Shown: positions 2,551 to 22,441, numbered from the stretch's first letter. The stretch: DNA of 64,000 bases from Minisyncoccia bacterium (GCA_050015375.1 JBEKBN010000005.1:1858-65857), one strand, 5' to 3'. Notes: generated by a model from the letters alone, not told the origin. Numbers and translations: made by a program.

Positions 2551-3660
2551 TTGTCTGAAATTATGTTTAAATTTGCCTCAAAAAGCAAATTAGGTATTGA
2601 TATCGGCACCGCTTCGATCAAGATCGTCGAGCTTTCCAAATCGGCTGGCCGTTACAAACTGGAGAACTATGGTCTTTTTGAATTGGAATCCGTCGAAGCG
2701 TCGGTCGGCGGTTCGGATGAAATTGTGGAAGCTCACCCGCCGAAATTGTTGGAAGAAGACCTGGCTTGGGGGATAAAGGAAACAATGAAACGCTGCAAGA
2801 TCACGGCACGCGACGTCGTGGCTTCGATCCCGTCGTTCAACACTTTCTCCACCATTATAACCATGCCCTATCTCTCGGAGCAAGATATCGCCAAGACCAT
2901 TCCCTACGAAGCCCGCAAATATATTCCCATTCCTTTGAGCGAAGTCATCATGGACTGGACGATCATCAATGTCGCTCCGCCGAACCAAAACCAAATTTTG
3001 CCGAACAAACAGTCCGAAGCCAAATCGCCGATCGTCGAGGTTTTTATTGCCGCCGTACCCAAGGAAGAAACCGCCAGATACCAAAAGATCATGTCGAACG
3101 CCGGCGTAAACCTGCGGGCCCTGGAACTTGAGAACTCGGCGTTGATCAGAGCGCTGGTCGGAAACGATCTGAGTCCCATTGCCATCATCAATATCGGCGG
3201 CCGGAGCACATCCATTTTGATAGTTGACAACGGCTACGAAAGGATCAGCCACAATTATGAGGTTGGCGGCTTTGAGATCACAAAAGCCATTGCCCGCTCA
3301 CTGAACATCAGTTTGAAAAGAGCCGAAGAATTAAAACGGAGCATGGGTTTGAAGAACGCTAACACGGACATGATCACCAGCGCCATGTCGTCGCTGGTGG
3401 ATCTGATCGCTTTTGAGACCAGAAAAACCATTCACAATTATGAGGACCTGAAAAAAACCCAAATTGCCAAAGTCCTTTTGGTCGGGGGATTAGCGAACAT
3501 GCCGATGTTCATGGAATATTTCGCCGACAAACTGGGCATGGCGGTATCAGCCGGAAATCCTTTGGCCCGGATCATCTACCCACCTCCTCTTGACGCCATC
3601 AAGGACGAATTAAACTCAACATTCACTATTGCTTTGGGACTTGGCATGAGGGAGATCTGA
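2551..3660 (+). CDS. pilM: Type IV pilus assembly ATPase-like protein PilM
   Basis: 369 aa. LGIDIGTASIKIVEL actin-like N-terminus and overall PilM architecture. Confidence 0.9.
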   Translation: MSEIMFKFASKSKLGIDIGTASIKIVELSKSAGRYKLENYGLFELESVEASVGGSDEIVEAHPPKLLEEDLAWGIKETMKRCKITARDVVASIPSFNTFSTIITMPYLSEQDIAKTIPYEARKYIPIPLSEVIMDWTIINVAPPNQNQILPNKQSEAKSPIVEVFIAAVPKEETARYQKIMSNAGVNLRALELENSALIRALVGNDLSPIAIINIGGRSTSILIVDNGYERISHNYEVGGFEITKAIARSLNISLKRAEELKRSMGLKNANTDMITSAMSSLVDLIAFETRKTIHNYEDLKKTQIAKVLLVGGLANMPMFMEYFADKLGMAVSAGNPLARIIYPPPLDAIKDELNSTFTIALGLGMREI

Positions 3661-3714
3661 ACGTAACGCCGGGTGTGCATAACAACCCAAGCTAAATAAG
3701 TTAAAATATAACTA

Positions 3715-4266
3715 GTGGCCGACGCAGGCGGGTTACAACTTCTTCCGGAAACCCGGAAGAAAATAGAATATCACGCACCGGGGCATAATCGGCTCTTGAT
3801 TTTTTCTGTTGTTTTCTTGGCATTTATTTTCGCCGTATACGGCGGGTTGGTCTATTATCAAAAATCTGTTCAGGGCCAGCTTGATACTATCAACAGCGCC
3901 TTGGTCAAGAACGAGCAAGCCCGGAGCAAGACCGACGAAGATATGCTTTTGAATCTGAAAGACAATCTGGCCGTCGCTTCGAATATGCTGACCCAGCACC
4001 TGCCGTGGTCGCAAGCCCTGACCCATATCCAAGCCCTGATCGTTCCCCAAGTTCAGTTCGAAAACCTGACGGTCAAGTTCGATCAGAAACAATATTCATT
4101 CAAAGCCCTGGCCGTCAGTTACGCGGCGGTGGCGAAACAGGTCGCCGCTTTTTATTCCGACGGCGCCATCACCAATATCGTGATGGGAAACATTACTGCC
4201 CAGCCAGACGGCACTGTTGAGTTTTCAGTCCAATTGGGGTTTGACCCGACCAAAGCAACCAAATGA
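3715..4266 (+). CDS. pilN: PilN-like pilus assembly protein
   Basis: Single N-terminal TM helix plus coiled coil; located immediately after pilM. Confidence 0.55.
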   Translation: MADAGGLQLLPETRKKIEYHAPGHNRLLIFSVVFLAFIFAVYGGLVYYQKSVQGQLDTINSALVKNEQARSKTDEDMLLNLKDNLAVASNMLTQHLPWSQALTHIQALIVPQVQFENLTVKFDQKQYSFKALAVSYAAVAKQVAAFYSDGAITNIVMGNITAQPDGTVEFSVQLGFDPTKATK

Positions 4267-4294
4267 TAATTCCGGAAAATCATATTCAATGAAT

Positions 4295-4412
4295 CCCGTT
4301 AGAAGTAGCTAAAACTAAATACTATAAGCAATTTACGATTAATAATTATGGCTATTTCTAACGGATATCTAAATAAAGTACGGAAATGTAAACATTTCCT
4401 ACTTCTAACGGG
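4295..4412. mobile_element. MITE-like palindromic element (CCCGTTAGAAG termini), 118 bp, TSD ATGAA
   Basis: Terminal inverted repeats cccgttagaagtag / ctacttctaacggg. Flanks atgaaT and ATGAAc. The right TSD copy supplies the start codon of the next gene. Confidence 0.7.
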
Positions 4413-4943
4413 ATGAACAAAGATATCATCGCATCAATCATATTCGGAGCCAGTTGTTTCATCTTTTTTTGGTTGGCCGTTCCGGTCTATGACAATATTT
4501 TAGATATCAAATCGGCCACCGCCGATATGCAATCATTGCTGTCAGAAAGGACGACCTTGCGCCAAAATGTCTCCAACCTGATGCAACAATACGAATCCAG
4601 AAGCGCCGAGATCGCCAAACTGATGATGTTTTTGCCGAACCAAAGCCGTTTGGACCAAATAATCGAAACCCTTCAATCAACGGCGGGTTCGACCGGCATT
4701 CAGATGAAAGACATGAGTCTTGCGTCACAGCCCAGCACCAATAATAGTCCCTACGTGGTAACGAATATCAAGATCGAGGTTTCGGGAAATTACGATTTGA
4801 TGGTCAATTATATGAAACAACTTGAGCAAAGTTTACGGATCTATGATGTCACCGAGATCAGCATCGCCCGGAATCAGCAGGCTCCTCTGGCGGCTAACCT
4901 GTTCAATATCGAGATCAAAGCCAATACTTATAGTTTAAATTAA
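4413..4943 (+). CDS. pilO: PilO-like pilus assembly protein
   Basis: N-terminal TM helix plus coiled coil; position between the pilN-like gene and pilB. Confidence 0.55.
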   Translation: MNKDIIASIIFGASCFIFFWLAVPVYDNILDIKSATADMQSLLSERTTLRQNVSNLMQQYESRSAEIAKLMMFLPNQSRLDQIIETLQSTAGSTGIQMKDMSLASQPSTNNSPYVVTNIKIEVSGNYDLMVNYMKQLEQSLRIYDVTEISIARNQQAPLAANLFNIEIKANTYSLN

Positions 4944-4944
4944 A

Positions 4945-5253
4945 ATGGACGGCACACCGGTAAAAAATAAAAAAGGGAATTCGAGTTTGTTCATTCAGAT
5001 CGCCATCATCTTTTTGGGCCTCGTCGGCGGCTATATTTATTATTCCCAGATCATCAAACCGGCGAAGACGGCCGTTACTTTGCCTGATATCCCCAGGTCC
5101 GACACCTTGAACAAGTTTCAGGATTTCAGTTCCTATAACTTTGGGATTTTGAACGACCCGACCTTCAAATCCCTCAAAATTCTCGGCAATATTCCGATCC
5201 AGCCCGGCGTTACCGGAAGAACCGATCTTTTCGCCCCGCTAATTAGCGAATAG
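4945..5253 (+). CDS. Small membrane-anchored protein (possible PilP-like)
   Basis: 102 aa, one TM helix, operon position only. Confidence 0.35.
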   Translation: MDGTPVKNKKGNSSLFIQIAIIFLGLVGGYIYYSQIIKPAKTAVTLPDIPRSDTLNKFQDFSSYNFGILNDPTFKSLKILGNIPIQPGVTGRTDLFAPLISE

Positions 5254-5340
5254 TGATCAGCCAATAGCGAATAGCAATTCGTGAATTGGAAATAGCAGCT
5301 AATAACTATCGGCTAATGACTGTCCGCTATTTGCTACCCC

Positions 5341-7140
5341 ATGGCTTTCAAAACCCCATCAATTTTAGTTGATGAACTCATCAAAAGCGGCCTTTTGACC
5401 GAAGAATCATCGGTTGCCCTTGAACAAGAAGCGGCCGACGGCAATAAGGATTTCGGCGAAGTTCTCATCGACCGCGGCGTCATCACAGACGAAGATCTTC
5501 TGAAGATCAAGTCGAGGATCTATCAATTGCCGATCATTGATATCGTCAATGTCGAGATCAACCGCGAACTTTCCAAAGAGATCTCCGACGAGGTCATCAA
5601 TTTTTACAAGATCATTCCTTTTGCCAAGAGCAACGGCGTTCTTAAGGTGGCCATGATCAACCCCGAAAACATCAACGCCCTTGAGGCCCTGAAATTTCTG
5701 GCGTCCGATCGTGGCCTGATCCCCGAGAAATACCTGATAACTTACAAGGACTTTGGCGCTTTGAGCCGGAGTTATCAAACGTTGGGTACCGAGGTCGGCA
5801 AAGAACTTGAAAATCTATCGGAAGAAAATACTCAAAAAAATCTACAGATCACCGACAAGACCGGCGGTCTGGAACAGATCACGGCTGAAGCGCCGGTCAC
5901 CCGGATCGTGGCCGTCATCGTCAAGCATGCCGTTGAAACGCGGGCTTCCGACATTCACCTCGAACCGTTCGAAGACAAGATCCGGCTGCGGTTCCGGGTT
6001 GACGGCTTACTCCATACAACCTTGACCCTGCCCATTAATTTGCAATCGGCCATCGTTACCCGCATAAAAATTCTTGCCGATATGAAGATTGACGAGACCC
6101 GTCTGGCTCAAGACGGCCGGTTCTCAACGAAGATCGGCGACAGGCGGATTGATTTCCGGGTTTCAACCTTTCCGACAAGAAATGGCGAGAAAGTCGTGAT
6201 GAGGATCTTGGACCCGTTGGTTGGCAATGTCGAGTTAACCGACCTGGGGCTTGAAGGCAGATCGCTGGAACTCGTCATCGAAAATATCGGCAAGCCGTTT
6301 GGCGCCGTTCTGATCACCGGTCCGACCGGTTCGGGCAAATCCACGACCTTAGCCGCCATTTTGAGAAAGATCAACGACGACGAGATCAATGTCGTTACCC
6401 TTGAAGACCCTATCGAATATTATGTCGAGGGTGTCAATCAATCCCAGATCCACGAAGAGATCGGTTACACTTTCGCCAGCGGTTTGCGCCACATTTTACG
6501 CCAAGACCCCGATGTCATCATGGTCGGCGAAATTCGCGACGGCGAGACGGCGCAATTAGCGGTCCAGGCCGCTTTGACCGGCCATGTCGTCCTGTCAACT
6601 TTGCATACCAACGACACCATCGGCGTCATCCCTCGGCTCATTGACATGGGCGTTGAGAAATATTTGATCGCGCCGACGATGAACTTAGCTTTGGCCCAGA
6701 GATTACCTCGTAAACTTTGCAACGCCTGCAAGGTGAAGGTCAAGGCCTTGGACTCCGAGGCCGAAATGATCAGGCGGGCGATCGCCGATATGCCGACCGA
6801 TGCCCGGAGGGATCTGCCCAAAAATGATTTTGAATTGTTCAAACCCAGCCCCAGCGGTTGCCGCGAATGCAACAACCGGGCTTACAAAGGCCGGATCGGG
6901 ATTTTTGAGACATTGGCCATGACCGATGAACTGGAAAATATCGTCTTGACCGATATTTCCGAAGCCAGGTTGAGAGAGGAAGCGAAACGACAGGGGATGA
7001 TTACCATGTTCCAAGATGGTATAATAAAAGTTCTGCGGGGCGTCACGTCGCTCGAGGAGCTTTTGACCGTGGCTCAAGAAGCGGCGGATGATGAGTTGGA
7101 TGCGCCGGTGAAAACACCAGCGGGAAATTCGAAGAAATGA
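5341..7140 (+). CDS. pilB: Type IV pilus assembly ATPase PilB (GspE family)
   Basis: 599 aa. N-terminal GSPII domain, Walker A LITGPTGSGKSTTLAAIL, tetracysteine motif CNACK...CRECN. Confidence 0.9.
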   Translation: MAFKTPSILVDELIKSGLLTEESSVALEQEAADGNKDFGEVLIDRGVITDEDLLKIKSRIYQLPIIDIVNVEINRELSKEISDEVINFYKIIPFAKSNGVLKVAMINPENINALEALKFLASDRGLIPEKYLITYKDFGALSRSYQTLGTEVGKELENLSEENTQKNLQITDKTGGLEQITAEAPVTRIVAVIVKHAVETRASDIHLEPFEDKIRLRFRVDGLLHTTLTLPINLQSAIVTRIKILADMKIDETRLAQDGRFSTKIGDRRIDFRVSTFPTRNGEKVVMRILDPLVGNVELTDLGLEGRSLELVIENIGKPFGAVLITGPTGSGKSTTLAAILRKINDDEINVVTLEDPIEYYVEGVNQSQIHEEIGYTFASGLRHILRQDPDVIMVGEIRDGETAQLAVQAALTGHVVLSTLHTNDTIGVIPRLIDMGVEKYLIAPTMNLALAQRLPRKLCNACKVKVKALDSEAEMIRRAIADMPTDARRDLPKNDFELFKPSPSGCRECNNRAYKGRIGIFETLAMTDELENIVLTDISEARLREEAKRQGMITMFQDGIIKVLRGVTSLEELLTVAQEAADDELDAPVKTPAGNSKK

Positions 7141-7225
7141 GGATGGTTAGTAGTGAGTAGTGAGTAGTGAGTAGAAAATAAAACAGAAACTACCAACTAC
7201 TAACTACCAACTACAAACTAGTTCC

Positions 7226-8302
7226 ATGGAGGACTATAAAAAAATTGTTGATGAACTTTTGGAGATCGCGGCCGAAAAAGGCGGTTCCGACCTTCACTTA
7301 TCCACCGGTTATTATCCGACCGTCCGTGTTGACGGCCGATTGATCCCGATGGATGACCATAGGGTTCTTGATAAGCGCCTCGTCGAAGGCATCGCTTTTT
7401 CGATCCTTGACGATGAGCACAAAGAAAGATTTCTCAAAGAAAGAGAGATCGATTTTGCTTATGAGTTGAATCAAAAGGTCAGATGCCGGGTGAATATTTA
7501 CACCGCCCGCGGAAATTATTCGGTGGTTTTCCGTTTTATTCCCGAGCGTATCATGACCATCGAGGAATTGAATCTGCCCGAGAGCATCAAGTTATTCACG
7601 AAAATTTCACAGGGCTTCGTGCTGGTTGTCGGCCCCAACGGCCACGGCAAATCCACGACTTTGGCCGCTATGATAGATCTGATAAACAAAGAAAGGGCCG
7701 AAAAGATCGTCACCATTGAAGACCCCATCGAATACATTTTCAGCCCCGAGCGAAGCATTATTGACCAGCGCGAAGTTTATTTTGACACTCATTCTTTCGA
7801 CAACGCCCTCCGTTCTACTTTCCGGGAAAATGTCAACGTCATCATGGTCGGCGAAATGCGCGACTTTGCGACCATGAGCGCGGCGGTGTCGGCGGCCGAA
7901 ACCGGCCATTTGGTTTTCGCTTCCATCCACACCAACAATGCCGCCCAAACCATTGAAAGGATCGTTGATTCGTTTCCGCCCGACCAGCAAGCCCAGATCA
8001 TCAGCCAGCTGGCCAATACCATTTCGGGCGTCATTTCCCAGCGTTTGATCCCTCGGCTGAAGGGAGGACTTATCCCGGCGGTGGAAGTCATGATCGCCAA
8101 TGCCGCCGTCCGCAATTTGATAAGAGAAAGAAAAACCCAGCAATTGAACATGGCCATTGATACCGGCGGCGATATCGGCATGATCTCGCTGAATAAATCA
8201 TTGGCCGACCTGGTCAGGCGGGGAGAGGTTGGCATCGAACAAGCGGAATTTTTCTCCCTGAATCCGGTCGAGCTGAGATCATTGCTTCGCGAACAAAATT
8301 GA
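7226..8302 (+). CDS. pilT: Twitching-motility / pilus retraction ATPase PilT
   Basis: 358 aa. Walker A GPNGHGKSTTLAAMI followed by IEDPIEY. Confidence 0.9.
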   Translation: MEDYKKIVDELLEIAAEKGGSDLHLSTGYYPTVRVDGRLIPMDDHRVLDKRLVEGIAFSILDDEHKERFLKEREIDFAYELNQKVRCRVNIYTARGNYSVVFRFIPERIMTIEELNLPESIKLFTKISQGFVLVVGPNGHGKSTTLAAMIDLINKERAEKIVTIEDPIEYIFSPERSIIDQREVYFDTHSFDNALRSTFRENVNVIMVGEMRDFATMSAAVSAAETGHLVFASIHTNNAAQTIERIVDSFPPDQQAQIISQLANTISGVISQRLIPRLKGGLIPAVEVMIANAAVRNLIRERKTQQLNMAIDTGGDIGMISLNKSLADLVRRGEVGIEQAEFFSLNPVELRSLLREQN

Positions 8303-8322
8303 TTTTCTAAAATAATTTTTCC

Positions 8323-9534
8323 GTGGAATTCGATTATCAAGCGAAAAATCAGGAAGGAACGTTGGTTGAAGGCAGAGTCGAGGCGCCATCGGAAGATCAG
8401 GCGGTCTCGATCCTTCACCGCAAAGGACTGATCATCCTTTCTTTGGGGTCTTCGGTCAAACCGCTTTTCTCGATGGACCTGATGGCAATATTTAATCGGC
8501 CGAACCGGAAGGACATTGTCATGTTCACCCGACAACTGGCAACCCTGGTGGATGCCGATGTGCCGGTGGTTGAGGGTCTCCACGCTTTGGCCGAGCAGAT
8601 AGAAAAACCGCCGTTCAAAAAGATCGTTTCGACCATTGCCAACTCGATCGAAGGAGGAGCGTCGCTGTCCTTGTCCTTGGCCGAACACGAGAAGATCTTC
8701 GGTTCGTTCTACATAAGTTTGATAAGATCGGGGGAAGTGTCGGGCAAACTCCATGCCACCCTTCTTTATCTCGCCGATTATCTGGAACAGAGCGCGGCCC
8801 TGAACTCGAAGATAAAAGGCGCCATGACTTACCCGATATTCGTGGTCTGCGCCATTGTTCTTGTCAGTATCATCATGATGACCACGGTCTTGCCGAACCT
8901 CTTGGTAATTCTCAAGGACTCAGGCGCCACCGATCTGCCGCTGACCACCAGAATTCTGATGGCCGCCACTGATTTTGTGAATAATTATCTTTGGTACCTT
9001 GTGGTCGGCCTTTTGGCTTTGGCCATCGGCATCACTTACTATGTTAGAAGCGTGACCGGTCGGGCTATGTGGGACAAATTCAAGCTCCGGATACCCCAGT
9101 TCGGCAAGATCATCAGGAATTTTTATATCGCCCGACTAGGCGAAGCGCTTTCCACCCTGATCAAATCCGGCGTGCCGATCCTCGACGGCTTGGGCATCAC
9201 CTCCGAGGTCGTCAACAATGATACTTATAAGGGCATAATTCTCGAAGCTCGGACCAATGTCCAAAACGGCGGCACCATCTCCGAGGTTTTCCAGAAATAC
9301 AAAGAATTTCCGCCTCTGGTCACTTCGATGTTGTCTATCGGCGAGAGAACCGGCCGGACCGATACCATGCTTGACAATGTCACCAAATTCTATAAATCGG
9401 AGACCGAGAACTCCGTCCAGAATCTCACCACCCTGATCGAACCGGTTTTGATCCTATTCCTGGGCCTGGCGGTGGGTATTTTGGTGGCGGCGATCTTATT
9501 GCCGATATACAACACGATAAGCACATCGGGCTAG
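8323..9534 (+). CDS. pilC: Type IV pilus inner-membrane platform protein PilC (GspF family)
   Basis: 403 aa, duplicated GspF domains with TM helices. Confidence 0.9.
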   Translation: MEFDYQAKNQEGTLVEGRVEAPSEDQAVSILHRKGLIILSLGSSVKPLFSMDLMAIFNRPNRKDIVMFTRQLATLVDADVPVVEGLHALAEQIEKPPFKKIVSTIANSIEGGASLSLSLAEHEKIFGSFYISLIRSGEVSGKLHATLLYLADYLEQSAALNSKIKGAMTYPIFVVCAIVLVSIIMMTTVLPNLLVILKDSGATDLPLTTRILMAATDFVNNYLWYLVVGLLALAIGITYYVRSVTGRAMWDKFKLRIPQFGKIIRNFYIARLGEALSTLIKSGVPILDGLGITSEVVNNDTYKGIILEARTNVQNGGTISEVFQKYKEFPPLVTSMLSIGERTGRTDTMLDNVTKFYKSETENSVQNLTTLIEPVLILFLGLAVGILVAAILLPIYNTISTSG

Positions 9535-14972: not shown

Positions 14973-15302
14973 TTGTTTTTGTGCTATAATAGAAATAGAA
15001 ATATGAAAATACCCGATTTCCTAAAAAAATACTTTTGGGATGTTGATTTTAACGGTCTCGATGCCAACACACATTCGCTTTTTATCGTTGAAAGAATATT
15101 AGAATACGGAGACGAAACCGCAACGAGTTGGATGCTGGATAATTTCAGCAAAGAGCAAATAAAGCAAACATTGCTGGAAAGAAAGGGTTTTTCGAAAAAA
15201 AGCGCTAACTATTGGTCTTTGATTTTAAATATACCTAAAGATAAAATTTCATGTTTGAACAGGTCTTACCAGCAGATGCAAAAAAGTCATTGGCCATATT
15301 AG
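14973..15302 (+). CDS. Hypothetical protein, upstream partner of the AbiEii-like gene
   Basis: 109 aa, low GC. Overlaps the next ORF by 52 nt in another frame. Confidence 0.4.
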   Translation: MFLCYNRNRNMKIPDFLKKYFWDVDFNGLDANTHSLFIVERILEYGDETATSWMLDNFSKEQIKQTLLERKGFSKKSANYWSLILNIPKDKISCLNRSYQQMQKSHWPY

Positions 15303-15874
15303 GCAAGAGCGGATTACTGAATGGCGCTTATCTGGCCGGCGGCACAGCTCTAGCCCTACAAATAGGACACAGGATTTCTGTTGATTTTGATTTTTTCACT
15401 CCGGAAGAATTTGACGAAAATATTCTAGTTCAACGGATGCAAAAAACAATTCCTGATTTTAAATTGGATAGGATGGAATGGGGAACCATTTTGGGATATA
15501 TTGGAGAAACCCGTTTCAGTTTGTTTTTTTACAATTATCCTCTTCTTTTCAAAACTCACGATTTCATGGGAGTTAAAATCGCAGACATAAAAGATATCGC
15601 CCCCATGAAAATAGCGGCCATATCGGACAGGGGGACGAAAAGAGATTTTATTGACTTATTTTTTTTAATAGAAGAGGAGAAAACATTGACGCTGGAAGAA
15701 GCGCTTGAGTTATATGATAAAAAATTCGGGTTACTTAAACAAAATAGAATTCATATACTGAAAAGCTTGGTCTATTTTGACGATGCCGAAAAAGGGGGAG
15801 AGCCCAAAATGATAAAAGACATATCTTGGGATAAAATAAAAAAAAGAATCGCAGAATTGGCGTTGGCTCAATAA
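15251..15874 (+). CDS. Nucleotidyltransferase, AbiEii/AbiGii toxin-like family
   Basis: AYLAGGTALALQIGHRISVDFDFFT, the characteristic GG(T/S)AL...D.DF NTase motif of this family. Confidence 0.65.
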   Translation: MFEQVLPADAKKSLAILGKSGLLNGAYLAGGTALALQIGHRISVDFDFFTPEEFDENILVQRMQKTIPDFKLDRMEWGTILGYIGETRFSLFFYNYPLLFKTHDFMGVKIADIKDIAPMKIAAISDRGTKRDFIDLFFLIEEEKTLTLEEALELYDKKFGLLKQNRIHILKSLVYFDDAEKGGEPKMIKDISWDKIKKRIAELALAQ

Positions 15875-16017: not shown

Positions 16018-16194
16018 ATGTCTTTTATGTCTGGTTTTCTGACCTTGGACATTAGAGAGCCAGAGCAGGGCACACTTTCCGGCATCGAAATGCAACCGAC
16101 TTGTGATTGCGATGATATCGCCTGCGATACCAATTGCGATTGCCAAGATTGCGATTACAACTGTGAGGAATGCGACTGCGACAAAAGCGACTGA
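16018..16194 (+). CDS. Candidate RiPP precursor peptide A (58 aa), Cys/Asp-rich core
   Basis: Not in the ORF track because it is under 60 aa. MSFMSGFLTLDIREPEQGTLSGIEMQ-PTCDCDDIACDTNCDCQDCDYNCEECDCDKSD. Good SD, own promoter and terminator. Confidence 0.55.
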   Translation: MSFMSGFLTLDIREPEQGTLSGIEMQPTCDCDDIACDTNCDCQDCDYNCEECDCDKSD

Positions 16195-16224
16195 CAGTTT
16201 GCCCCGTTTGTAGCCAATGTCCCC

Positions 16225-16257
16225 GAGACGCCACTTCTTGGCGCCTCTTCTTTTTTA
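16225..16257. terminator. Bidirectional terminator after precursor A, convergent with the HExxH gene
   Basis: gagacgcc-acttctt-ggcgcctc followed by ttcttttttatt. Confidence 0.6.
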
Positions 16258-17124
16258 TTCAATGACGATGGGTTGTCTAAATTTTTTTAGAAGCTCCTGA
16301 TCTCTTAATGTTTTGTAGCCAAATTTATGCCACATCTCGATTTTTTTGCTTATTTGGTCGCCGATAGAAGCAAATAGTTTTATTAATTTATTAATAATCT
16401 GATTCATATCATTGTTATTATTTTTGTTAAAAATAATATTTTTGTCTACAAAATCAACCAGGGTCATATTATTATCTCCCTCCGATATGTGTATCTCTAC
16501 AATCTCTGGATTGCCTCGGGGAGATTTAGGCATATTAAAAAGGCTTAATAACTCTGGATTTTTAAACATACTTGAGGTGATTGATTCCTGTAAAACATAA
16601 ACCACATCCTTTGAAACATTTTGCCCAATTTTCCAGCCCATTTTCTCGATATATTCTAAAAAAATAATATGAGAAATTTCATGAATTGCAGTCGAAAGAA
16701 CCGACTTGTTTTCTGGATTTTTATTATTTAATTCTGCCAATACAGAATAAAAAAAATAATCTTTCTTGAATGGTGAAAACGGCAGGAGAGACAGATACGC
16801 GTTATATGCTATAGGATCAGACCATGAATAGTTCATAAATCCGCTCAAGAATTTAAAAGCCGCATTATTTTTTTTATTAATTATTTCTTGATTGTACTTG
16901 ATTATCTCTTCTAATTGATTACCCTTGCTTTGATGAAGTGAAACAACAAAATCACGCACTTTTTTTTCCGCATCAGAACTGTTTATTATGTCCGTAAGTT
17001 CCGGGTATGTTTTAAGGATCTTCTCTCGATTTTGAATAAAATATTTATGCCAAATAAAAGAAACGAAGGCGTCAGCATCTTTAATTGGGTCGTTAATAAT
17101 TTTGATTGTTGGGGATACGCCCAT
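16255..17124 (-). CDS. HExxH-motif protein, putative zinc metallopeptidase
   Basis: 289 aa, very low GC. TAIHEISHIIF. Homologous to 20241..20888 (T.IHEI.H.........W). Confidence 0.55.
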   Translation of the reverse strand: MGVSPTIKIINDPIKDADAFVSFIWHKYFIQNREKILKTYPELTDIINSSDAEKKVRDFVVSLHQSKGNQLEEIIKYNQEIINKKNNAAFKFLSGFMNYSWSDPIAYNAYLSLLPFSPFKKDYFFYSVLAELNNKNPENKSVLSTAIHEISHIIFLEYIEKMGWKIGQNVSKDVVYVLQESITSSMFKNPELLSLFNMPKSPRGNPEIVEIHISEGDNNMTLVDFVDKNIIFNKNNNNDMNQIINKLIKLFASIGDQISKKIEMWHKFGYKTLRDQELLKKFRQPIVIE

Positions 17125-17222
17125 TTCTTTAATATTTACAAATCTTTATTATAATTGTATAGTAAATTATAGCATAGCAACTGCACTTTAACAACGAAAT
17201 CCTAGCCAGAAAGAGGTTTTGT

Positions 17223-18563
17223 ATGTACAGGACTTTAAGCGCTCCGCTCATCACACAGGTTGAGTTGACTGAAAAATGTCCCAATAAATGTAGACATTGC
17301 TACAATTATTGGCGGACATTTAATACTGGCAAGTTCAATAATTTTCCAGCCAAAATGGTTGACCAGACGCTGGATAAATTAGCAGAAGCAAAAATATTTC
17401 ACTTAGTCATAACCGGTGGCGAACCACTTGCCAATAAACCAGTTCTTTTTAGTTTCCTCAAAGGCGTGGAAGCCCGAAAATTGACTTGCGGCATCAATTC
17501 GACATTATCAGGACTCACAAAATCAGATGCCGAATATTTTCAGGAAAGTGGCGTTATGAATGTCCTGATTTCGATATTGGGGTCAGACGAGAAAAAACAT
17601 GACGCTATTACCCAAAGCAGGGGTTCTTTTTCCCGCACAATTGATGGGATAAAAATATTGAAAAACACAAACATCCCCATTAGCGCAAATATGGTTGTCT
17701 CCGCCTTGAATATTGACGACATAATCCCGACTTCGATACTTGTTAAATCGCTCGGTTTTAAGAAATTCTTCATTACTAGGGCGGCTTGTCCCAGTAACTG
17801 TATTGATTTCAACGAGCTACGCTTAACAAGAGAACAGTTTACAGGTTACTTAAAAGAACTCCACGCTATTCAAGAACGGATGGGTTTGCGTACGGGTTTT
17901 TTGGAGTGCTACCCGCTTTGTGGCATGAAAGAATTACTACGATACAGTTCTTTTCTGGGTCGCAAATGTTTGGCCGGAATAACTAGCATGACCATAGGTC
18001 CGACCGGAGAAGCCAGACCCTGTTCCCATTTGGATAAGGTTTATGGAAATATATTCAAGGAAAATATCCGTGAAGTTTGGTCCAGAATGACGGAATGGCG
18101 TCATCAATCGTTGCTACCAGACATATGCAAGTCATGCAGAATCGTTAACTATTGTGGTGGCGGGTGCAGGATGGAAGCAAAAACGCTCGGGGGAGGTATA
18201 AATGAAATCGATCCCTTTGCTGAACCGGCAAATGTCGAATATGCGACAGAACAACTTGCCATTTTACACAGAAGAAAACTTGCGAAAAAAGATGAGCTAC
18301 CAAAATTCTGCAGGATAAACCCAAGCTTACGGGTGCGGAATGAATCCTTTGGAGGAGTGTTTTTTGTGGGGGATAAGTCATCTGGTTTAGTGGAATCTCC
18401 AGTGATGGATTTCGTTGGTAGGCTAGATAAAAGGCAAATTTATGAAGTTGATTTTTTGACCGCAGAGATAAATCGTTCTTTATCTTCCGTAAACATCACC
18501 AAGTTTCTCAACCGTATGTTCAAGGAAAAGATTTTCGTTGCTATTTCCGGGGATCATGTTTGA
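17223..18563 (+). CDS. Radical SAM / SPASM-domain peptide-modifying enzyme
   Basis: CPNKCRHCYN (CxxxCxxC) plus C-terminal SPASM cysteines CKSCRIVNYCGGGCR. Confidence 0.85.
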   Translation: MYRTLSAPLITQVELTEKCPNKCRHCYNYWRTFNTGKFNNFPAKMVDQTLDKLAEAKIFHLVITGGEPLANKPVLFSFLKGVEARKLTCGINSTLSGLTKSDAEYFQESGVMNVLISILGSDEKKHDAITQSRGSFSRTIDGIKILKNTNIPISANMVVSALNIDDIIPTSILVKSLGFKKFFITRAACPSNCIDFNELRLTREQFTGYLKELHAIQERMGLRTGFLECYPLCGMKELLRYSSFLGRKCLAGITSMTIGPTGEARPCSHLDKVYGNIFKENIREVWSRMTEWRHQSLLPDICKSCRIVNYCGGGCRMEAKTLGGGINEIDPFAEPANVEYATEQLAILHRRKLAKKDELPKFCRINPSLRVRNESFGGVFFVGDKSSGLVESPVMDFVGRLDKRQIYEVDFLTAEINRSLSSVNITKFLNRMFKEKIFVAISGDHV

Positions 18564-19763: not shown

Positions 19764-20111
19764 TTGTTTTTTGACAACCAAAGACAAAAGAAAAGAGGAA
19801 AAATGACTAAGAAATTCCAGCGAACAATAGAAGAATTTACCCGTGGAAAGTGTGTTTTTACTGTGCTTGGAAACGGCTACACTAATCACTGCCCGCAATG
19901 CCTATGGAGTAAGCATGTTGATATAAATCCTAGCGACCGCCAGGCAATATGCCAAGGGTTTATGGAACCCGTGGGCATTGAGCTCAAGAGTGGGGAATAT
20001 ACTATCCTCCATCGCTGTGTTTCGTGCGGTTTTGAGAAACGGAATAAGACGTCAAAAGATGATAATTTTGATGTAATTCTCCGACTCTCGAGTCGTCCAA
20101 CCAAACATTAA
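19764..20111 (+). CDS. RNHCP-domain zinc-ribbon protein
   Basis: NHCPQC...CVSCG. Likely start is ATG 19802 (MTKKFQ). Confidence 0.5.
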   Translation: MFFDNQRQKKRGKMTKKFQRTIEEFTRGKCVFTVLGNGYTNHCPQCLWSKHVDINPSDRQAICQGFMEPVGIELKSGEYTILHRCVSCGFEKRNKTSKDDNFDVILRLSSRPTKH

Positions 20112-20240: not shown

Positions 20241-20888
20241 CTAAGATTTGGAGGTTTTTTTGAGTATTTCCTCTAGATTTGGAAAGTTTGAGTTGAAGAT
20301 CTCGTCAATTTTTTCGATATTAAACCCTTGGGGAAGTTTCTGCATTTTACTTATTTCCGGCATGATTTTCGAGAATATTAGGTCAACAATCCTTTCTTTT
20401 TCCCAGTGACCAATATGATATTTAACTATTAAAGATTCGATATTTAGGTGTAAAATTTCGTGAATAATGGTTCTGCAAATTTCGTTTGGTTGTCTATTAT
20501 TGACATTGATAATTATTGTGCTGGGAGGATCGTAACTCCCGCCGACTCCATATTTTGTAAGAATAATTTTATATAATCCAAATCCTGTCGTTAGACCGTT
20601 TTTTTCTATATTGTTTTCAAGAATATCTGAGATCTTGCCCCATTCTGCATAAATCGAATTAGTCAATTTTTGGTATTCGTTTCGATCAAATTCGTCTTCC
20701 AATTTGTCAGTGATGGTGTCCAAATTAACATCTTCATAACCATCCATGACTATCTCAGAAATTCTGGCAGGTAGACTAATGTTATACCCTCTCTCTCGAT
20801 ACCATTTTAACTTTTTTAATGTATCTAAAACTCTCTCCACTTCAAACTTGAGAGAGAATTTGATTTTGATTTCAATCTGTTTGTTCAT
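20241..20888 (-). CDS. HExxH-motif protein, paralog of 16255..17124
   Basis: TIIHEILHLNIESLIVKYHIGHW; low GC. Confidence 0.55.
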   Translation of the reverse strand: MNKQIEIKIKFSLKFEVERVLDTLKKLKWYRERGYNISLPARISEIVMDGYEDVNLDTITDKLEDEFDRNEYQKLTNSIYAEWGKISDILENNIEKNGLTTGFGLYKIILTKYGVGGSYDPPSTIIINVNNRQPNEICRTIIHEILHLNIESLIVKYHIGHWEKERIVDLIFSKIMPEISKMQKLPQGFNIEKIDEIFNSNFPNLEEILKKTSKS

Positions 20889-20930
20889 AAAAAATTAGGG
20901 GTTAGCATAAGCTATGCTTATACTAACCCC
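20888..20930 (-). terminator. Hairpin terminator/attenuator between precursor B and the HExxH gene
   Basis: ggggttagcataagc / gcttatactaacccc stem with a T-run on the minus strand. Confidence 0.6.
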
Positions 20931-20960
20931 TTTTGGAGAGAACAGCGCAACCGCGTCTGG

Positions 20961-21146
20961 TTAAACGCATTGCCCGGTAGTGCAGTCGCCAGTCACGACA
21001 TCACAACAGTTAATGCCGAACCGGTTTTGCAGGACAGAAGACGGCTGGGTGCTATCTTTCGAATCTTTCTTCAGATGATCCCCGGCCAAATTTACGAAGA
21101 GCAACTTCAATTCCTGCATACCACGATTACCCCTGTTTTTGACCAT
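20961..21146 (-). CDS. Candidate RiPP precursor peptide B (61 aa), Cys-rich C-terminus
   Basis: MVKNRGNRGMQELKLLFVNLAGDHLKKDSKDSTQPSSVLQNRF-GINCCDVVTGDCTTGQCV. SD ggaaggag. Starts 2 nt after the rSAM stop. Confidence 0.5.
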   Translation of the reverse strand: MVKNRGNRGMQELKLLFVNLAGDHLKKDSKDSTQPSSVLQNRFGINCCDVVTGDCTTGQCV

Positions 21147-21148
21147 AA

Positions 21149-22198
21149 CTAAGGATCTCCTTCCTTATTCGAGATCATACCAGAAAAGTCAAAACTATTC
21201 CACCACAGTGGACAACCTCCACGACACCACCACCTATAATCACAATTTGTGCACTTTCGATGACGAAAAACATCAATCGTTCTTCTAAGACGGCTCATTT
21301 CAGAGCCACTCCAAAAATCAATGAATGATTGTGAGCTGGAAATCACAGAATCAATTTCGGATGGACAAACAAGCTCAAATCCCGTCGTGTGAGTGCACAA
21401 AGAAATCGCACGGTTCTCCTTAATTGTTACCGCGTTGCCCGTAAAAACCGGGCAGTTAAACATCAATGACTTTTCCGCCATTATTTCTCTCAATGTCATT
21501 TCCTCTATAAGGCACCACGGTAAGCTAATGACGAAACAGCATTTCTGCTCCAATTTTTTACAAAGTCGAAAAATGTCTGGGATCGCATCAGCAATCAAGA
21601 CCGGATCGGTTTTATATTGCCTGGTATCATCCAAGGAAGGAAGACCGAAAGTGAAGCAAAGCGATTTTGCTTCGAACTTTTTTGCCAAAGCGATGCAATC
21701 TCCAACATTGCCCAGATTTTCCGGACATAGAACGACATTGACCGAAAAACCAATATTTCGATCACGCAGATTTTTCAATCCCTGGCACATTTCATCAAAT
21801 CCTTCCGATGCGCCCGTGTTTGCAAAATAGTGCTCCCGATTGGTTCCGTGCATAGAAACAGAAATACTGAGATGAGGGATGTTTTTTATTACTGACAAGG
21901 GAATGCCATTTGAAAACGATCTCCCGTTGGTAATTAAATTACAGAACTGAAAAAAACTACACAAGTCATCTGCAATTGAAGAAAATTCTGGATGAAGAGT
22001 CGGTTCGCCGCCCGTAATTACGCAGGATTTCGTCCCGCATTCGGACAAGGTTTTTGCAACCCTGACAATAAAATCGCGATTCAAAAAAGTTGCTATTTCC
22101 GACCCCTTACGCAAACACCACAAACAATCGTTGTCGCAAATCCCAGTTAGTGACAACCATACTCGATTTGGTACGACGTTTTGCAACTTTTCAGCCAT
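21149..22198 (-). CDS. Radical SAM / SPASM-domain peptide-modifying enzyme
   Basis: CDNDCLWC (CxxxCxxC) plus SPASM CTNCDYRWWCRGGCP. The ORF track extends to 22285, but ATG 22198 has SD ggagg and is preferred. Confidence 0.85.
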   Translation of the reverse strand: MAEKLQNVVPNRVWLSLTGICDNDCLWCLRKGSEIATFLNRDFIVRVAKTLSECGTKSCVITGGEPTLHPEFSSIADDLCSFFQFCNLITNGRSFSNGIPLSVIKNIPHLSISVSMHGTNREHYFANTGASEGFDEMCQGLKNLRDRNIGFSVNVVLCPENLGNVGDCIALAKKFEAKSLCFTFGLPSLDDTRQYKTDPVLIADAIPDIFRLCKKLEQKCCFVISLPWCLIEEMTLREIMAEKSLMFNCPVFTGNAVTIKENRAISLCTHTTGFELVCPSEIDSVISSSQSFIDFWSGSEMSRLRRTIDVFRHRKCTNCDYRWWCRGGCPLWWNSFDFSGMISNKEGDP

Positions 22199-22441
22199 AA
22201 ATACCTCCGAATAATAGCAAAAATGTTTTTTATTGTGTTGTAAACGAACAATTATAAAGATACTAGAATATTGCATTTTTGTCAAAATATATTAGAATAT
22301 TTAGAATAATAAAAAACATTACCACTTCAACTGCCACTATGGGTTTCCGAAGTTTTTCCATGTATAATTAAGGCAATAAACATCTTCACCGCCTCGGGGA
22401 ATAATTTAGAGAAGCCCTGGTTATTTTCAAAAAGTTGATAA

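Follow-up and report, generated by a model that had tools for sequence, protein, structure and literature searches.

The locus described here raises two questions. The first is whether a 61-aa open reading frame (ORF), wedged between the gene of a radical S-adenosylmethionine (rSAM) enzyme and that of a HExxH protein, encodes the precursor of a peptide that is synthesized on ribosomes and modified after its translation (RiPP), and the second is what the hairpin and T-run behind this ORF do to the expression of its neighbors. The locus, cassette B, is on the minus strand of a 64,000-nt stretch of DNA from a Minisyncoccia bacterium (GCA_050015375.1 JBEKBN010000005.1:1858-65857); this whole stretch is called the window, and coordinates refer to it unless another locus is named. 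Minisyncoccia belong to the phylum Minisyncoccota, i.e. the Candidate Phyla Radiation (CPR)/Patescibacteria, and the host is an uncultured bacterium known from a metagenome-assembled genome; an identical copy of the HExxH protein bears the NCBI label of such a Minisyncoccia genome. An earlier note on this DNA had described the ORF as a precursor translationally coupled to its rSAM gene and followed by an attenuator. Our comparison of related loci indicates that the ORF, precursor B, is a genuine, conserved precursor-like gene tied to the family of the adjacent enzyme, rSAM-B. We consider it probable that the three genes are the core of a RiPP cassette in a CPR bacterium, in which a bicistronic rSAM-precursor transcript would end at an intrinsic terminator and the HExxH protein, HExxH-B, would be expressed by read-through.

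Every element of the junction that had been proposed, namely a 61-aa ORF with its own Shine-Dalgarno (SD) sequence placed 2 nt past the rSAM stop, is present and can be read directly on the minus strand (Table 1). A stem-hairpin with a T-run likewise lies between this ORF and the HExxH gene, but its stem has 16 pairs, one of them G-U, rather than the 15 counted previously. The N-terminus of rSAM-B, as read from ATG 22198, agrees with the N-termini of its homologues.

Table 1. Features of cassette B, in the direction of transcription, and of the surrounding DNA of the window.
Feature	Position	Strand	Remarks
Promoter-like TTGACA-17-TATCTT	22257..22285	(-)	upstream of rSAM-B; candidate operon promoter; consensus scan 10/12, pattern match only
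rSAM-B, radical SAM/SPASM peptide maturase (predicted), 349 aa	21149..22198	(-)	start ATG 22198, SD GGAGGT
Extended -10-like TGgTATGAT	21174..21182	(-)	inside rSAM-B 3' end, ~25 nt upstream of precursor B ATG
Precursor B SD, GGAAGGAG	21157..21164	(-)	inside rSAM-B 3' end, 10 nt before ATG
rSAM-B stop, TAG	21149..21151	(-)	followed by TT, then precursor B ATG (21146..21144)
Precursor B ORF, 61 aa, MVKNRGNRGMQELKLLFVNLAGDHLKKDSKDSTQPSSVLQNRFGINCCDVVTGDCTTGQCV	20961..21146	(-)	starts 2 nt after rSAM-B stop
Terminator hairpin, AGGGGTTAGTATAAGC-ATA-GCTTATGCTAACCCCT	20897..20931	(-)	begins 29 nt past precursor B stop
Tail, AATTTTTT	20889..20896	(-)	U-tract, AA offset from stem; abuts HExxH-B ATG
HExxH-B, predicted gluzincin-like zinc metallopeptidase, 215 aa	20241..20888	(-)	no SD
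Ser/Thr/Gly-rich predicted surface protein, 1179 aa	22442..25981	(+)	divergent from rSAM-B
DUF6922 + AbiEii-like pair	14973..15874	(+)	next to cluster A
Second RiPP-like cluster, A	16018..18563		
Precursor A, core CDCDDIACDTNCDCQDCDYNCEECDCD	16018..16194	(+)	cluster A; strong SD
HExxH-A, 289 aa	16255..17124	(-)	cluster A
rSAM-A, rSAM/SPASM, 446 aa	17223..18563	(+)	best NCBIfam matches AhbD, NirJ2, PqqE and PapB-like, all below cut-off
Signal-peptide protein, 296 aa	18746..19636	(+)	between clusters A and B; very strong SD
RNHCP-domain protein	19764..20111	(+)	between clusters A and B; PF12647, E = 1e-26

The case for a precursor rests on what accompanies rSAM-B in other genomes. Relatives of rSAM-B were followed to 11 other loci (26-65% identity), whose contigs were fetched and whose small ORFs were read, including uncalled ones. 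Nine of the homologues are 35-49% identical to rSAM-B, and a scan of Joint Genome Institute metagenomes added L095 (65% identity) and L096 (26% identity, E = 9e-43). L001 and L002 are 100% identical to the window and thus offer no strain-level variation for selection tests. A precursor stands beside the rSAM gene in all 12 loci of the family, often as an uncalled small ORF. These peptides share one design: a leader with the motif LxxLFxxLxG(E/K)H(I/L), a variable linker of ~20 residues and a C-terminal core of the form I(D/N)CCDVVxGDCxxGxCV, or a shorter Cys/Asp-rich version of it. In precursor B the leader motif is LKLLFVNLAGDHL and the core is GINCCDVVTGDCTTGQCV, encoded at 20964..21017; the core of the L096 precursor is CDCEGDCDGDCVD. 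Alignment of the 12 precursors showed conservation of L13, L20 and G22 in the leader and of C47, C48, D49 and C55 in the core, where the only nearly invariant residues are Cys and Asp. This is the generic layout of a RiPP precursor, with a short ORF by a maturase gene, a conserved leader and core, and a variable linker between them. Nucleotide differences between the window and L095 number 22, 8 and 28 at codon positions 1, 2 and 3, a pattern that is lowest at position 2, as expected for a sequence coding in this frame.

A hidden Markov model (HMM) built from ten of the precursors scores the family at E-values of 1e-13 to 1e-27 and detects L095, which was left out of its construction, at E = 5.5e-19. 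The same model found nothing below E 0.3 in ~160 loci holding more distant rSAM genes, and it matches just one ORF in the 64-kb window. When the 61-aa peptide was used directly as a query, it retrieved only itself among 5.8 billion proteins; its relatives became detectable because the search went through the rSAM gene and through uncalled ORFs. Curated models matched none of the peptides: for all 12, no NCBIfam family was found at E <= 1, and Pfam gave one chance match and no precursor family. The homologues begin at the position of Met10 (ATG 21119) of the window ORF. The functional length of precursor B may therefore be 61 aa (from 21146) or 52 aa (from 21119). The earlier note had named comparison with orthologous loci as a check on its proposal, and in the relatives both the ORF and the position of the hairpin proved to be conserved, so that the finding which the note said would refute it, a lack of such conservation, did not arise.

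The adjacent enzyme has the characteristics of a SPASM-type maturase. rSAM-B matches the radical SAM family PF04055 with 55.9 bits (cut-off 29.5, E = 7.5e-15), and its cluster-binding motif, C21-x3-C25-x2-C28 (CxxxCxxC, residues 21-28), is invariant in 10 homologues. The SPASM model TIGR04085 gives 30.9 bits, just above its cut-off of 27. The C-terminal region holds seven Cys residues that are invariant in rSAM-B and its nine homologues of 35-49% identity, C229, C249, C268, C316, C319, C325 and C329, which include a CX2CX5CX3C array, and the usual final Cys after CX3C is not present. rSAM-B carries no N-terminal RiPP recognition element (RRE) extension, because the cluster motif begins at residue 21 and leaves no room for one. 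NCBIfam equivalog models all scored far under their cut-offs, and the equivalog matches listed reached at most 55 bits. By sequence, the nearest relative of solved structure is SkfB (4e-18, core region only). An AlphaFold2 (AF2) model of rSAM-B with a predicted local distance difference test (pLDDT) score of 84 resembles SkfB, SuiB, anSME (template-modelling (TM) score 0.70), ChlB, PqqE and CteB at E-values of 1e-8 to 4e-13, SkfB being the best match (4e-13). PapB, a SPASM rSAM enzyme, forms thioethers between Cys sulfur and the beta carbon of Asp with relaxed spacing (PMC9413430). Because the core invariants of precursor B are Cys and Asp, and PapB joins Cys to Asp, our best guess, made by analogy, is that rSAM-B would form intramolecular Cys thioethers on the Cys/Asp-rich core.

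These data also bear on whether the small ORF is a substrate at all. It might encode a regulatory peptide, or a small protein rich in Cys that binds metal or has an accessory function, with the rSAM enzyme acting on another substrate. We consider this very improbable in view of the classic bipartite pattern of the peptides (N-terminal motif, variable linker and Cys-rich C-terminus), their strict one-to-one linkage with the rSAM-B family and absence elsewhere, and the presence of the peptide maturases SkfB, SuiB, ChlB and CteB among the best sequence and fold matches of rSAM-B. The idea would nevertheless agree with the failure of known precursor families to match the ORF, with an rSAM-B that has no RRE and whose overall fold resembles anSME no less closely than it does RiPP maturases, and with a neighborhood that has no dedicated transporter or immunity gene.

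The junction between rSAM-B and precursor B is similarly conserved. The distance from the rSAM stop to the precursor start is 2 nt in the window, 4 in L006, 19 in L008, -11 in L009, 5 in L010, 9 in L011, 1 in L012, 16 in L013, 16 in L014, -17 in L096 and 28 in L095, so that a tight spacing of -17 to +28 nt holds in 11/12 loci. The sole exception is L003, where the intact precursor is located after the HExxH gene. There, a remnant of a precursor 3' end and an identical terminator are left between the rSAM and HExxH genes (2710..2829 of L003), and at 3576..3873 the relocated precursor is accompanied by a duplicate of the final 22 nt of the rSAM gene and by a second terminator. Because these traces are retained, L003 is best described, on this comparison, as a derived rearrangement of the same ancestral order. 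In L095 (417..446), an ATG served by an SD and placed 2 nt past the rSAM stop begins an ORF of 9 codons, the TGA of which overlaps with the start codon of the precursor (ATGA). This mini-ORF is the counterpart of residues 1-9 of the window ORF, which are not conserved, and is either a coupling upstream ORF or the product of a 1-nt assembly indel.

The SD of precursor B forms an anti-SD duplex of -9.4 kcal/mol; the mean over all precursors is -9.5 kcal/mol and all of them are strong. Among the called genes of the window genome the median is -1.0 kcal/mol, and only 3/21 reach -6 kcal/mol or lower. With a 2-nt gap and the SD inside the rSAM 3' end, the window has the layout of a translationally coupled pair. 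The coupling proposed in the earlier note is thus borne out as far as the tight junction and strong SD are concerned, which are conserved in 11/12 loci, but coupling itself is deduced from that layout. The junction fits co-transcription and efficient, possibly coupled, translation; independent ribosome loading would be equally possible because the SD of the precursor is so strong.

Some features of the genome surround these observations. In the segment 10961..31146 of the window (= L001), most called genes are without an SD; among the few that do have one are both precursors, rSAM-B and the 296-aa secreted protein. On related CPR contigs (also L175 and L179), TATAAT precedes the ATG by 5-8 nt in many genes, a sign that mRNAs without a leader or with a short one may be widespread. 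The extended -10-like element TGgTATGAT within the rSAM-B 3' end (Table 1) has TGaTAATAT as its counterpart in L095.

The hairpin behind precursor B is of a kind that is uncommon in the window. Its 16-bp stem includes 7 G-C pairs and 1 G-U pair, closes a 3-nt loop and has a free energy of -24.9 kcal/mol. An 86-nt segment around it folds with -32.9 kcal/mol, as against -15.7 +/- 3.1 kcal/mol for shuffled sequences (z = -5.5), and 0/200 shuffles were as stable. Terminator prediction, the other check suggested earlier, placed the hairpin as the top terminator-like site in 15.5-23 kb. Among 76 candidate hairpins with a T-run in the 64-kb window, both strands counted, it ranks third in stability, and only about seven of them reach -18 kcal/mol. 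A G+C-containing stem-loop, a U-tract tail (AAUUUUUU) and a position after the stop codon, the features of an intrinsic terminator, are all found.

A hairpin of 12-17 bp (-11 to -25 kcal/mol) occurs 0-34 nt past the precursor stop in 11/11 loci with downstream sequence, L003, L006, L008-L013, L095 and L096 holding the positional equivalents of the window hairpin. At least 7 T are present in the 10 nt that follow the hairpin in 9/11 loci. The stem sequences are unrelated among most of these loci. Partial similarity is seen between the window and L095, which share the outer GGGG/CCCC and the T-run only and are identical at 44/73 intergenic positions. Because of the low base rate of such hairpins in the window, their recurrence after the precursor is not accidental. 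A repeated element or operator was considered and rejected, there being no other copy in the window and the stems differing between loci. Rfam showed no family in the hairpin region. In the minimum-free-energy structure of the 143-nt downstream region the hairpin is kept and no competing antiterminator helix appears, although no dedicated search of suboptimal structures was made. The precursor stop, 29 nt from the stem, is beyond a ribosome footprint, and a terminating ribosome would therefore be too far away to interfere with the stem.

What lies directly past the hairpin is the start of HExxH-B. From the end of the hairpin to the HExxH ATG there are 8 nt in the window, compared with 9-11 nt in L095, L011 and L013, and the next in-frame Met of HExxH-B is residue 48. 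A promoter scan found no sigma-70-like site between the hairpin and this ATG in the window. Because the ATG abuts the U-tract and no promoter-like site is present there, read-through appears to be the sole evident route by which HExxH-B would be transcribed in the window. A U-tract that is offset from the stem is expected to weaken intrinsic termination, and the AA offset between stem and U-tract in the window should, on this general ground, do so. The term attenuator accordingly fits no more than loosely, for a terminator that would be leaky, a property deduced from the layout; no antiterminator fold was seen.

A homologue of HExxH-B is adjacent to rSAM-B in 9/10 assessable loci, in three arrangements. 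It is co-directional and downstream in the window, L095, L006, L008, L010, L012 and L013, upstream of the relocated precursor in L003, and convergent in L096. The convergent HExxH protein of L009 was tried as a further member of the family and was rejected (no HMM match at E <= 1). Because the outer flanks differ between loci, we conclude from this comparison that rSAM-B, the precursor and HExxH-B travel together.

The residues T111, Y113, G114, G117, Y119, H143, E144, H147, E165 and D169 are invariant in 84 homologues of HExxH-B. They include the motif H143-E144-x-x-H147 and, 18 positions past the second His, E165, a spacing that is gluzincin-like; the corresponding distance is 20 in thermolysin and 19 in M1 enzymes. 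The AF2 model of HExxH-B has a pLDDT of 94.9. Foldseek comparison of this model with the PDB gave weak matches (E >= 0.48, TM 0.26-0.35), nearly all of them to M1 zinc aminopeptidases or anthrax lethal factor, and HExxH-B has no sequence match in Pfam, NCBIfam or the PDB. Based upon the model and the motif, we predict with moderate confidence that HExxH-B is probably a minimal zinc metallopeptidase and a candidate leader peptidase. The lack of an SD before HExxH-B was considered as a special low-expression feature and rejected, most genes of the genome being without one as well. The HExxH-B family comprises at least 644 clusters at 50% identity, and all members are annotated 'hypothetical'. 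In L179..L182 (~3181..8865), a homologue stands, without an rSAM gene, in a row of putative peptidase genes (two Peptidase_MA_2-like, DUF2268 and Peptidase_S51) together with an ABC-F ATPase, a context that hints at a more general proteolytic role of the family.

With these results in mind, we propose the following course of events. Transcription would most likely begin upstream of rSAM-B and give a bicistronic rSAM-B/precursor-B mRNA. Precursor B would be translated from its own strong SD within the last codons of rSAM-B, and with a start only 2 nt past the rSAM stop, ribosomes could re-initiate or load afresh. The 16-bp hairpin and U-tract would end most transcripts and protect the message at its 3' end. 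In the window, HExxH-B would be expressed by read-through alone, and the putative leader peptidase would thereby be kept low relative to the precursor. The Cys/Asp-rich core (IDCCDVVxGDCxxGxCV) would be the target of rSAM-B, which would most plausibly install thioether cross-links within the peptide, and HExxH-B would then remove the leader.

The earlier note had read the arrangement as one of high precursor and low enzyme stoichiometry. This can apply to HExxH-B but not to rSAM-B, which lies upstream of the hairpin. Because rSAM-B is on the same transcript as the precursor, the hairpin could lower HExxH-B only and not the modifying enzyme. On this layout, what sets the ratio of rSAM-B to precursor must be translation, mRNA processing or the possible internal extended -10.

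Several points weigh against the proposed cassette. The fold neighbors of rSAM-B span thioether formation, C-C cross-linking and Cys oxidation, so the modeled fold cannot fix the modification. The assignment of HExxH-B as a peptidase draws on motif spacing and on fold matches at E >= 0.48. Members of the HExxH-B family were examined in two other contexts, and in neither does an rSAM gene lie within 5 kb; because the family is large and found without rSAM nearby, the comparison indicates that HExxH-B is not part of a dedicated RiPP enzyme family. With regard to expression, termination at the perfect 16-bp stem could be nearly complete. TATAAT-like boxes stand 5-12 nt before the HExxH ATG in L003, L006, L008, L010 and L012, and these five loci may use a separate, near-leaderless promoter for the gene. 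Finally, it is possible that the internal extended -10 gives precursor B a transcript of its own.

The points on expression lead to an alternative that we hold to be unlikely, in which the hairpin marks the end of the operon as an efficient terminator of the ordinary kind, and HExxH-B, an independent neighboring gene, is transcribed from a separate and possibly leaderless promoter, so that there is no attenuation. The stability of the long, perfect stem and the TATAAT-like boxes of the five loci would agree with this, but the ATG follows the hairpin by no more than 8-11 nt in the window, L095, L011 and L013, and this interval holds no promoter-like site. The AA offset of the window U-tract, moreover, is not what an efficient terminator would be expected to have. 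Most genes of these genomes are without an SD and many have TATAAT just before the ATG, which would also agree with this alternative, and the wide occurrence of the family without rSAM points in the same direction; against this stands the persistence of HExxH-B at the cassette across rearrangements and differing outer flanks. In agreement with this alternative, the unit merely stops at the terminator in L009 and L096, where the next gene is convergent.

A second alternative, which is compatible with the cassette that we favor, assigns the hairpin mainly to the mRNA itself, as a 3'-end stabilizer or processing signal that would shield the precursor-bearing transcript, or a short precursor mRNA processed from it, against 3' exonucleases and thereby raise precursor yield, with effects on HExxH-B being secondary. 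The hairpin is present even where no co-directional gene follows (the second copy in L003, L009 and L096), but protection of this kind comes with any terminator, and the data do not distinguish the two roles. A possible internal extended -10 before the precursor SD would suit such a role, and an internal start site within the preceding enzyme gene has been documented for btmD (PMC7113386). The putative element, however, overlaps conserved codons of rSAM-B (FDFSGMI) and is absent in L003. Overall, we regard stabilization as the main role of the hairpin as improbable, more so than ordinary termination.

The window also holds a second RiPP-like cluster, A (Table 1). Its precursor shows no similarity to precursor B, rSAM-A and rSAM-B are 19% identical, and HExxH-A was rejected as a member of the HExxH-B family (no HMM match at E <= 1). 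Because the precursors and enzymes of the two clusters are unrelated or only remotely related, it is a reasonable reading of the sequences that clusters A and B make two distinct products, in agreement with what had been supposed from the unrelated leaders. The DUF6922 and AbiEii-like pair next to cluster A is of the toxin-antitoxin or abortive-infection type, and such a pair also occurs ~2 kb upstream of the rSAM-B homologue in L008. On the far side of cassette B, the predicted surface protein that is divergent from rSAM-B has Flg_new_2 and Ig-like Pfam matches.

CPR/Patescibacteria have tiny genomes and very few recognized biosynthetic clusters. Among GTDB species representatives, an rSAM alignment scan found no orthologue of rSAM-B, the best match having 26% identity, and the literature yielded nothing specific on this precursor/rSAM-B family in CPR bacteria. 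The novelty thus is in the undescribed precursor/rSAM family and its CPR host. The regulatory layout follows the standard logic of RiPP operons and will not surprise a specialist. The conserved terminator is also a clear natural illustration of how the substrate and its modifying enzyme can be set apart from the peptidase within one operon, in a genome whose genes are mostly without SDs. A further idea is appealing but doubtful: that IDCCD-core peptides and their RRE-less rSAM/SPASM enzymes are a new RiPP class with an undescribed cross-link, confined to ultra-small episymbiotic Minisyncoccia/Patescibacteria, aided by a hitherto unrecognized minimal gluzincin, one of few CPR natural products and possibly acting on hosts. 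Because CPR have so few recognized clusters, the conserved cassette, with its uncurated precursor family and compact rSAM/SPASM enzyme, lends itself to heterologous expression and to the pursuit of new cross-link chemistry.

Known systems resemble each part of this cassette to a different extent. Alpha-ketoglutarate-dependent HExxH enzymes (TIGR04267-type; PflC/PosC) are also encoded beside rSAM genes in RiPP clusters (PMC12636437). HExxH-B is much smaller than these and its predicted fold points to zinc peptidases; it was rejected as a HExxH peptide hydroxylase of this type, with no NCBIfam family at E <= 0.1. Its invariant HExxH and downstream Glu are those of gluzincins (clan MA: thermolysin, M1). 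Unlike them, HExxH-B has only 215 aa, no peptidase-family sequence match and fold scores that are not significant. M1-type AplP is a leader peptidase for class III lanthipeptides, and similar to AplP, the HExxH-B family is widespread and not confined to a gene cluster.

As in PapA/PapB, SCIFF/CteB and SkfA/SkfB, an rSAM maturase with a SPASM (or Twitch) domain is here found beside a short precursor rich in Cys. The residues that are conserved in the core of precursor B, Cys and Asp, are also those of PapA. In contrast to PapA, the core CCDVVTGDCTTGQC is without CX3D repeats or their spacing and is built on CCD...GDC. The PapB model NF047865 (cut-off 340 bits) is not among the best 25 rSAM-B matches listed, and rSAM-B differs from PapB in having no N-terminal RRE. 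Neither SCIFF nor any other precursor model matches the 12 peptides.

The RiPP precursor genes nisA and sboA are both followed by imperfect terminators. Terminators of this kind ('attenuators') are common after RiPP precursors, and bottromycin btmD, which lies tightly behind an enzyme gene, is followed by a predicted attenuator, in addition to having an internal start site (PMC7113386). Cassette B departs from attenuated RiPP operons in that its main modifying enzyme, rSAM-B, is upstream of the hairpin, so that attenuation would be confined to the putative peptidase; some relatives may transcribe the downstream gene from a separate promoter. Similar to btmD, however, precursor B is not first in its predicted operon and is packed tightly against the preceding enzyme gene, and a stable hairpin stands within tens of nucleotides after it, before a putative biosynthetic gene.

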